Shown: piece after piece, positions 7,719 through 8,717 of the stretch | How the letters are laid out: each line of letters begins with the position of its first letter | How positions within the stretch are numbered: the stretch's first letter is position 1 | Assembly (NCBI GenBank): GCA_016188355.1 | Contig: JACPHY010000010.1 | Coordinates: 1 to 17,896 of the forward strand | DNA: 17,896 nucleotides | Direction: 5' to 3' | Source: Candidatus Uhrbacteria bacterium | GTDB lineage: Bacteria > Patescibacteriota > Patescibacteriia > JACPHY01 | Position numbers and translations under genes: made by a program | Notes under the pieces: generated by a model | Database searches by the model: none | What the model was told of the DNA's origin: nothing | What the model saw: only the letters and a program-made list of their open reading frames with translations

Positions 7719-8717
7719 TCACCACAGCGGCGTCGGCGGCGCGGACGGGAATCGTAATTCCAGGGTCGCTCGACGTGCTTCGACCTCCGGAGGCACCTCG
7801 ATCATCGTTGCGCAGTGATGACACGGCTGTTCCGTCTCGCGGCGCTCCCGTCGCCAGACGTCGCGTCGGCAATGGGGACAGGCAGTCACCGCATGGACGA
7901 GTGTATCTCGGAAATGCGAGCGCTTCGCGATGAGTCGCCAGTGGCGGTCGCCGATTACCAGCTGCTCCAAAGTCCGTGGCGCGTCGTTTGCGATTCGTTC
8001 GAATACGGGCATGGGTTGCCACAGCTGCTTCACGGTGAGGCGTTCGGCGATGTGCATGGGAATGGTGAGCGGGCTGCTGCAATTCCCGCACCAGTCGTGG
8101 CGCTCGGTACTCGCTCGTGCGGCGTCGAGGGTGGCGCTGGCGGAGCAGCGCGGGCAGATGGTCCATCCGCCGCACGAGCGATCCTCACGGCGCTCCCAGA
8201 GGAGCCACGGCGTACCATCCGGGTCCACCCCCTTCCCTGAGATGGTGGTCGTGGGCTGCGCAGATGGGCGCCATGGCCGCATGCGAGTTGCCGCGATGAA
8301 TTCCTGAACGAGGCGATCGAGATGCAGTTTGCCGATCTCCGGTCGTGGGAGCGGTGCGCCCTGCCAAGTGGTGGCACGCGTGTCACGATCGGCGATGCGC
8401 ACCGCAACGGAGTCGGGAGTGGGACATGGCCCTGCGGCACTGAGCGCGGTAACGATCGCCGGCGGAATCTCCACGGCATGTCCGCAGTCCGCACATCGTG
8501 TCACGGGATGCAGGAATGTGCAGAAGGCGTGTCTGCAGGCAGGGCACACGGTCTGCGCAGCGAGGCGTTGGTCATTGCACTGGAGGAGCTGCCATGGCAT
8601 ATCCTGCACGCGACATCGCGTGACCACGCGCGGCGTTTGCTCCGGTGGCTCGCCGAACGCATGTAGGTGCGCTTGTAACTGTTCGAGTCGGCAAAAATGA
8701 ACGGAGACGGAGTTCAT
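7719..8717 (-). CDS. Cys-rich protein with three tandem zinc-ribbon-like modules, each CxxC...CxxC. It is the first gene of the four-gene module.
   Basis: Module 1 is VCPACRHAFCTFLHPVTRCADCGHAVEIPP. Module 2 is ICPRCSASATLDAARASTERHDWCGNCSSPLTIPM. Module 3 is ACPHCRRDVWRRERRETEQPCHHCATMIEVPP. I chose the ATG at 8717 (MNSVSVHF...) because AAGAGGAAAG lies about 9 nt upstream. The track ORF starts at a GTG at 8753 with no SD. ORFs 7815..8240(+), 7930..8307(+) and 8030..8494(-) are shadows. Confidence 0.7.
   Translation of the reverse strand: MNSVSVHFCRLEQLQAHLHAFGEPPEQTPRVVTRCRVQDMPWQLLQCNDQRLAAQTVCPACRHAFCTFLHPVTRCADCGHAVEIPPAIVTALSAAGPCPTPDSVAVRIADRDTRATTWQGAPLPRPEIGKLHLDRLVQEFIAATRMRPWRPSAQPTTTISGKGVDPDGTPWLLWERREDRSCGGWTICPRCSASATLDAARASTERHDWCGNCSSPLTIPMHIAERLTVKQLWQPMPVFERIANDAPRTLEQLVIGDRHWRLIAKRSHFRDTLVHAVTACPHCRRDVWRRERRETEQPCHHCATMIEVPPEVEARRATLELRFPSAPPTPLW

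Follow-up and report, generated by a model that had tools for sequence, protein, structure and literature searches.

MoxR-type AAA+ ATPases and VWA proteins occur as pairs, such as NorQ/NorD, CbbQ/CbbO and RavA/ViaA. These pairs act on dedicated partner or client proteins, as described for NorQD (PMC9976466, PMC13036017) and CbbQO (PMC4660213). MoxR-vWA ternary systems have also been described, and in a term search of that account zinc ribbons are found only in GTPase-centric systems and not with MoxR-vWA (Kaur et al. 2020, PMC7159879). Here we describe a locus from a Candidatus Uhrbacteria bacterium (assembly GCA_016188355.1, contig JACPHY010000010.1; the whole stretch of 17,896 nucleotides (nt) that was analysed is called the window) in which a predicted operon combines a MoxR AAA+ ATPase and a VWA protein with a 332-amino-acid protein carrying three CxxC...CxxC modules, hereafter the zinc-ribbon protein. 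The gene is real and its motif cysteines are constrained, the modules are predicted to be zinc ribbons, and the protein is tentatively placed as an accessory of the MoxR/VWA machine encoded with it.

Results

Three CxxC modules in one protein

The gene lies on the minus strand of the window:

7719..8717, minus strand: multi-zinc-ribbon open reading frame (ORF), 332 amino acids, ATG 8717, stop 7719-7721

The product is an exact match to the NCBI hypothetical protein HYV74_03075 (Candidatus Uhrbacteria bacterium), while the longest version of the ORF starts at GTG 8753 on the same strand. The protein is 37.5 kDa, mildly basic with an isoelectric point (pI) of 8.6, and soluble, with no transmembrane segments. 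Arg, Ala, Pro and Thr abound in its sequence, and Pro/Ala/Arg/Thr-rich linkers separate the modules.

Six CxxC motifs, at residues 58, 75, 188, 210, 280 and 299, form three pairs (CPAC...CADC, CPRC...CGNC and CPHC...CHHC), with 13, 18 and 15 residues between the two motifs in modules 1, 2 and 3. As shuffled versions of the protein (n = 20,000) have a mean of 0.91 CxxC motifs, and six or more in a fraction of 1.5e-4, the three modules recognized in the preliminary description of this DNA are borne out. The proline-containing module end that it reported (EIPP, TIPM, IEVPP) also holds, as the pairs are followed by EIPP, TIPM and EVPP, respectively, with [IV]-P shared by all three.

8454..8603, minus strand: module 1, residues 39-88, with DMPWQLL strands, C58PAC61...C75ADC78 and VEIPP; C66, H63 and H80 are conserved too
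8049..8225, minus strand: module 2, residues 165-223, with DPDGTPWLL strands, C188PRC191...C210GNC213 and LTIPM
7785..7952, minus strand: module 3, residues 256-311, with DRHWRLI strands, C280PHC283...C299HHC302 and IEVPP; missing from the orthologue

Pairwise local alignments among the three modules give z = 4.5-6.6 against shuffles, with module 3 nearest to module 1 (alignment score 59, z 6.6). In a five-module alignment of these three and the two of the homologue P0122, described below, D, W, C, C, C, C and P are invariant. The consensus is D-x-[PH]-W-x-[LV]-[LI], 7-12 residues, [TA]-x-C-[PR]-x-C, 13-18 residues, C-x-x-C and h-x-[IV]-P. The repeat unit also takes in two N-terminal D-x-PW-x-[LV] strands ahead of its first CxxC motif, and is about 50-59 residues long and not 30-35 as first thought. 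It had also been supposed that the modules arose by recent duplication. The other modules are 23-26% identical to module 1, the orthologous module pair W1/H1 being 39% identical, and the gene contains no DNA-level repeat, tandem or dispersed, beyond short chance matches. A recent duplication is therefore unsupported.

A single homologue with conserved cysteines

Among 1.84e9 representative proteins searched with HMMER, the zinc-ribbon protein has a single true homologue, P0122 (229 amino acids, 36% identity, E = 9e-20). P0122 is encoded at 7114-7803 of a syntenic Uhrbacteria contig (GCA_016206015.1, hereafter L001), at the position that corresponds to that of the zinc-ribbon gene. Its two modules are the orthologues of modules 1 and 2, and the protein stops soon after the second, so that a homologue with a different repeat number does exist. 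All eight motif cysteines of modules 1 and 2 are invariant between the two proteins, as are C66, H63 and H80 (one homologue compared), and P0122 retains both the four cysteines of module 2 and its DxDGTPWL motif. Outside the motifs, the first 232 residues hold five more cysteines, all of them unconserved, three lying at aligned columns and two opposite gaps. The concern that the cysteines might vary among homologues thus did not materialize. Since P0122 keeps eight of eight motif cysteines and none of the five others, the gene is real and under constraint at its cysteines.

Other features of the ORF are those of a gene. A Shine-Dalgarno-like GAGGA stands ahead of ATG 8717, and the orthologous ATG in L001 has GGAGGA. 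The GC contents at the three codon positions (GC1/GC2/GC3 of 0.67/0.56/0.71) follow the pattern of the neighboring genes, which is absent in the other two minus-strand frames.

Either the lineage of the window gained module 3 or that of L001 lost it. No relic of this module was found downstream of P0122 in L001. A tblastn extension that hinted at one was an artefact of merged table rows, the true alignment ending after module 2.

Wider searches added no member to the family. A word-indexed search of 5.8e9 proteins returned only the zinc-ribbon protein itself, and phage and plasmid collections gave no match to it. The HMMER scan also returned P0123, an FN3-repeat protein and a spurious match, and a metagenome scan with patterns from the two-sequence alignment gave 417 matches with 0 confirmed. 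A second metagenome scan, based on synteny with the AAA protein, found two close loci, L093 and L094, the leader proteins of which belong to a separate 'WxHELYEKL' family. A likeness seen by eye between LWQPMPVFERI and LWDQPHPVSYKIE is unsupported (hhalign probability 0.1%).

Predicted fold and metal

The five-module alignment served as input for AlphaFold2 (AF2), and only module 1 (residues 31-96) was modelled. The model has a mean predicted local distance difference test score (pLDDT) of 90.3 and a predicted template modelling score (pTM) of 0.74. From the N-terminus it runs through three strands, a knuckle formed by CPAC, a hairpin, a second knuckle formed by CADC, a last strand and a C-terminal helix that begins at the conserved Pro. 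The strands of the model are at 23-28, 35-38, 43-45 and 52-54, while CPAC occupies 29-32 and CADC 46-49. This topology is predicted to be a zinc ribbon with an extra hairpin. Single-sequence AF2 of the full-length protein was uninformative (pLDDT 34).

Profile searches point the same way. Against PDB sequences the module profile has weak matches (E 0.006-0.3), mostly to small zinc-binding domains, led by the C4 ribbons of Rpb12, eS27 and TFIIB, with LysW and RPA12 further down. Classical zinc ribbons are also among the top Foldseek matches, all of them non-significant. The full-length protein has no Pfam match at E <= 0.01, and its sub-threshold matches are zinc-ribbon or zinc-finger families, the best being DUF7575 (16.2 bits) and DZR_2 (15.5 bits) against gathering thresholds of 27-28.5 bits. 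A zinc-ribbon nature, as originally proposed, is therefore plausible given the confident ribbon model and the weak matches led by C4 ribbons, and most likely each module holds one structural Zn2+ through its four cysteines. As it falls below the threshold of every Pfam zinc-ribbon family, the protein is filed as an orphan of the zinc-ribbon kind, outside any named family.

A predicted operon with a SAM riboswitch-like leader

The zinc-ribbon gene is the third of a predicted seven-gene operon with an S-adenosylmethionine (SAM) riboswitch-like leader, the genes of which are predicted to be co-transcribed. Around the zinc-ribbon gene, the minus strand carries in order (MVP, major vault protein; MTA/SAH, methylthioadenosine/S-adenosylhomocysteine):

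11681..11793, minus strand: SAM-I riboswitch-like aptamer heading the operon (RF00162, 24.6 bits, below the Rfam threshold)
11646..11664, minus strand: terminator-like hairpin and T-run after the aptamer, the expression platform
9620..11407, minus strand: MVP-like gene (Vault repeats, MVP shoulder/SPFH)
8802..9482, minus strand: MTA/SAH nucleosidase-like gene (PNP_UDP_1)
8775..8798, minus strand: hairpin element copy 1, CGGGGGAGCCTCGCTCCCCTCCTC, just past the nucleosidase stop; L001 counterpart 7047-7067
7671..7694, minus strand: hairpin element copy 2, GAGGGGAGCCTCGCTCCCCTCCTC, 25 nt past the zinc-ribbon stop; L001 counterpart 7824-7844
6089..7516, minus strand: MoxR-type AAA+ ATPase, NCBI start GTG 7516
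5565..6092, minus strand: small conserved cassette protein of about 175 amino acids, its start overlapping the AAA stop (ATGA)
4180..5568, minus strand: zincin-like HExxH and VWA protein, 462 amino acids, with a sub-threshold DUF2201_N match
2918..4108, minus strand: divergent S-adenosylmethionine synthetase (MetK-like)
2588..2627, minus strand: strong terminator-like hairpin closing the predicted operon

At the gathering threshold Rfam reports nothing in the window, and the leader appears at a relaxed threshold only. The orthologous leader of L001 (3995-4110) scores 32.7 bits against RF00162, also below the Rfam threshold. No stretch of the block is better conserved than the leader, which has a DNA identity of about 91% between the two loci. 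By direct reading, not by a computed fold, CTGGATGCGTC looks like an antiterminator and matches the complement of the P1 5' strand almost throughout. The only notable terminator-like sites on the minus strand are those at 11664-11646 and 2627-2588. The operon appears to be SAM-switched.

The 24-nt GC-rich hairpin element (GAGGGGAGCCUCGCUCCCCUCCUC as RNA) has exactly two copies in the window, where 0 are expected by chance; they flank the zinc-ribbon gene, an arrangement conserved in L001. The element could be an intercistronic stabilizer or attenuator, a protein-binding site or the footprint of a gene insertion. Also conserved with L001 is the stretch that runs from the zinc-ribbon gene to the AAA gene (7517-7718, minus strand), a spacer that keeps two hairpins, one pair of which shows a compensatory change. 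A conserved GGAGGAA lies upstream of the AAA start at GTG 7516. The alternative in-frame ATG 7609 is kept in L001 and would extend the protein by a basic Thr/Lys/Arg-rich tail of the sort seen in other homologues, while a start at ATG 7714, abutting the zinc-ribbon stop, is unlikely.

Within the syntenic block the zinc-ribbon gene is the fastest-evolving. Identity between the window and L001 is 93% for a 304-amino-acid protein of the block divergent from the operon, 85% for the MetK-like protein, 81% for both the AAA and the VWA proteins, 80% for the radical SAM enzyme and 68% for the small cassette protein. It is 64% for the Wzy protein, 59% for each of the MVP-like, nucleosidase and RelA/SpoT-like proteins and 34-36% for the zinc-ribbon protein.

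Homologues of the first operon gene, the MVP-like one, number 65 at E <= 1e-10 (other loci, L090, L091 and L092). Several of them are from Uhrbacteria, and three of the listed homologues are named Anaerolineales/Anaerolinea or Eremiobacterota. Pairing of the gene with one for a PNP_UDP_1 nucleosidase recurs in Uhrbacteria. In a term search, a preprint on bacterial MVP (10.1101/872010) did not mention operon, neighbour, context, nucleosidase or zinc.

The cassette in other genomes

The MoxR AAA+ ATPase, the small protein (about 140-190 amino acids), the HExxH zincin and VWA protein and the divergent MetK-like SAM synthetase form a conserved unit, with 493 confirmed loci among species-representative genomes from many phyla. 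In 62 of 89 loci examined, the VWA gene has the MetK-like gene after it. Among these 62 are all nine loci of the Candidate Phyla Radiation (CPR) or near-CPR for which the sequence continues downstream, and the majority of the 80 loci spread over many phyla. Of more than 90 cassette loci, only two, those of the window and of L001, encode the zinc-ribbon protein, which is not a defining cassette component. The preliminary description had it leading the AAA+/VWA module. This is correct as to position, the gene being directly upstream on the same strand, but not as to a conserved partnership, as more than 90 related cassettes are without it.

In loci of CPR, Verrucomicrobiales, Polyangiaceae, Rhodospirillaceae, Alphaproteobacteria and Polaromonas, the cassette stands behind SAM riboswitches that pass the Rfam threshold. 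They are of the SAM-I type at L093 (70.3 bits), L094 (67.1 bits), L088 (64.5 bits), L084 (46.9 bits), L004 (71.4 bits), L005 (66.5 bits) and L086 (58.6 bits), and of the SAM-I/IV type at L007 (74.3 bits), L015 (two copies, 72.6 and 64.1 bits) and L023 (51.0 bits). Scores at L089, L002 and L003 are slightly under the threshold. In the literature searched, no link of MoxR/vWA to SAM synthetase or to SAM riboswitches was found.

The slot between riboswitch and AAA gene holds variable small proteins, and is empty in L002, L084, L004 and L005. A 'WxHELYEKLxLWDxPHP' family occupies it in L088 (258-665, plus strand), L093 (329-820, plus strand) and L094 (344-1000, plus strand), the L094 member having two additional N-terminal Cys pairs. 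Another slot family is found at the proteobacterial loci L015 and L023. A single-ribbon CPKC...CxEC family is in the slot in L087 (1755-2201, plus strand), divergent upstream in L003 (7249-7635, minus strand) and downstream of MetK in L084 (12816-13190, plus strand). Homology between these slot-protein families and the zinc-ribbon protein is undetectable; the single-ribbon CPR family, tried as a homologue, was rejected (hhalign probability 10%). The background frequency of CxxC...CxxC genes in cassette loci is about 4%, and the recurrence of ribbon proteins beside CPR cassettes, involving two or three independent families only, is suggestive.

Genes outside the operon

Beyond the operon terminator, a 418-amino-acid protein (1138-2394, minus strand) has a match to the RelA/SpoT nucleotidyltransferase region that is below threshold (21.5 bits). 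Two good sigma-70-like promoters lie ahead of its gene (2520-2702, minus strand). L001 has a conserved counterpart of the protein, followed by a canonical HD, RelA_SpoT and TGS gene.

Upstream, a block divergent from the operon comprises three genes:

11923-12837, plus strand: gene of the divergent block
12641-13996, plus strand: gene of the divergent block
13759-15414, plus strand: gene of the divergent block

The 304-amino-acid protein of this block, 93% identical in L001, has no family match. Its radical SAM enzyme has a weak PADLOC match to pVip (prokaryotic viperin; E 1.8e-10) and scores 24 bits against the viperin family of NCBIfam, for which the cut-off is 180. The block also holds a Wzy_C O-antigen-ligase-like membrane protein.

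Discussion

The zinc-ribbon protein may be a lineage-specific, non-enzymatic accessory that serves as a multivalent adaptor or scaffold for the co-expressed MoxR/VWA machine, a proposal that we favor but hold with somewhat less than even confidence. The adaptor role, first suggested in the preliminary description as one option beside a nucleic-acid or protein sensor, is read from the position of the gene. Each module is predicted to consist of a short beta-hairpin (D-x-PW-x-L) packed on a C4 zinc ribbon, after which come h-x-[IV]-P and a helix of short length. When SAM is low, the protein would be expressed along with the MoxR/VWA remodelling machine, and its ribbon modules would dock a partner, whether protein or RNA, onto that machine.

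Several observations weigh against such an accessory role. The zinc-ribbon protein is missing even in close CPR relatives with 60-70% AAA identity, and since none of the other cassette loci examined, more than 90 in number, has it, it is dispensable for the core machine. The AAA homologues examined, long ones included, have no fused zinc ribbon, with nothing but basic low-complexity tails at their N-termini. Nor is the gene translationally coupled to the AAA gene, given the linker of about 110-200 nt with its two conserved hairpins. The protein reaches no family in Pfam, NCBIfam or PADLOC, and no significant structural neighbor was found for it. Its low identity between the two genomes (36% against 59-93% for the neighbors) could reflect weak constraint outside the cysteines. 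Lastly, it is confined to loci that have the MVP-like and nucleosidase genes in the interval from riboswitch to AAA gene, an exclusive co-occurrence by which it could belong functionally to those proteins.

That co-occurrence in two loci is a ground for regarding the zinc-ribbon protein as a partner of the MVP-like shell protein, the MTA/SAH nucleosidase or both, acting as cargo, assembly factor or tether, with the AAA+/VWA cassette a mere neighbor. The MVP-like and nucleosidase genes do recur as a pair in other Uhrbacteria contigs, but L091 has the pair without a zinc-ribbon homologue (L090 stops short of the relevant position), and the interaction has no independent support; we regard this role as quite unlikely. 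Zinc ribbons frequently bind nucleic acids, and the protein is basic, so the three ribbons might instead bind RNA or DNA, for example the flanking hairpin, and tune the expression or stability of the operon mRNA. The occurrence of the 24-nt hairpin exactly twice, after the upstream gene and after the zinc-ribbon gene, in both genomes is in keeping with such a regulator, as is the conserved spacer with its own two hairpins. However, the hairpins could be mere intercistronic stabilizers or attenuators, the protein has neither a helix-turn-helix nor a known RNA-binding domain, and none of its relatives is known to bind nucleic acid. With support that is circumstantial, a nucleic-acid-binding function seems doubtful to us.

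The nature of the metal and of the ORF itself allows two further explanations. The knuckles of rubredoxins and zinc ribbons share the CxxC...CxxC pattern, and the metal cannot be read from sequence, so the modules could bind iron in a rubredoxin-like manner, or an Fe-S cluster, for redox reactions or electron transfer. Yet the profile matches and the sub-threshold Pfam matches are zinc ribbons or zinc fingers. No rubredoxin is among the Pfam or PDB profile matches listed, the nearest being zf-ChsH2, a 'rubredoxin-like zinc ribbon' (E 0.36), and the cassette has no redox partner, making an iron or redox module very unlikely. It is more improbable again, to the point of being hardly credible, that the ORF is spurious or decaying and encodes no functional protein. 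An orphan with 1 homologue among so many representatives, diverging very fast, with a low-complexity Arg/Ala/Pro-rich composition and in high-GC DNA rich in long ORFs, does invite that suspicion. Against it stand the orthologue at the same position, the selective conservation of motif cysteines, the conserved ribosome-binding site, the gene-like frame-specific GC pattern and the confident AF2 module.

The proposal of an accessory of the MoxR/VWA machine may be extended, more speculatively. The zinc-ribbon protein could be one of several non-homologous zinc-ribbon proteins that occupy the leader slot as client-specifying adaptors or regulators of a SAM-riboswitch-controlled MoxR/zincin-VWA machine coupled to a MetK-like enzyme, with the number of modules (two or three) setting the valency. 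We consider this wider scheme unlikely as it stands.

CPR genomes are rich in hypothetical proteins, and as a lineage-restricted variant of a very common metal-binding fold the zinc-ribbon protein is of modest value for their annotation. Its main value is as a pointer to the widespread, riboswitch-preceded MoxR/zincin-VWA/MetK-like cassette, which is more interesting than the protein itself. If the protein does dock onto the machine, it could provide a handle on the client that the cassette remodels.

Comparison with known systems

The modules are most like the C4 ribbons of Rpb12/RPABC4, eS27, TFIIB, RPA12 and the N-terminal part of NrdR, with which they share two CxxC knuckles, a beta-hairpin between them and a third strand after the second. 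The spacing of 13-18 residues is shared as well. DZR (PF12773), DZR_2 (PF18912) and Zn_ribbon_* proteins also have several CxxC pairs per protein, and module 1 has weak scores of 15.5 and 14.7 bits there. However, the module scores are far under the gathering thresholds of DZR and DZR_2 (about 27 bits), and DZR ribbons are contiguous, whereas in the zinc-ribbon protein about 85-130 residues, including conserved non-ribbon elements, separate one ribbon from the next. The single-ribbon CPR proteins (124-148 amino acids; L087, L003 and L084) are similarly small CPxC...CxxC proteins adjoining the cassette, but have one ribbon, a spacer of about 35 residues and a varying position and orientation.

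With respect to the genes around it, the protein does not match the ternary systems of MoxR and vWA reported by Kaur et al. (PMC7159879). The AAA protein of the window scores 23.6 bits against bpMoxR, for which the cut-off is 27. The third component of those systems (VMAP, iSTAND or beta-propeller) and their effectors were not detected in the window in a non-exhaustive search with Pfam and PADLOC. The arrangement resembles that of NorQ/NorD, CbbQ/CbbO and RavA/ViaA, in that the zinc-ribbon gene is placed directly upstream of, and on the same strand as, genes for a MoxR AAA+ and a VWA protein. Unlike those known pairs, the cassette of the window is tied to a MetK-like gene and to SAM riboswitches.

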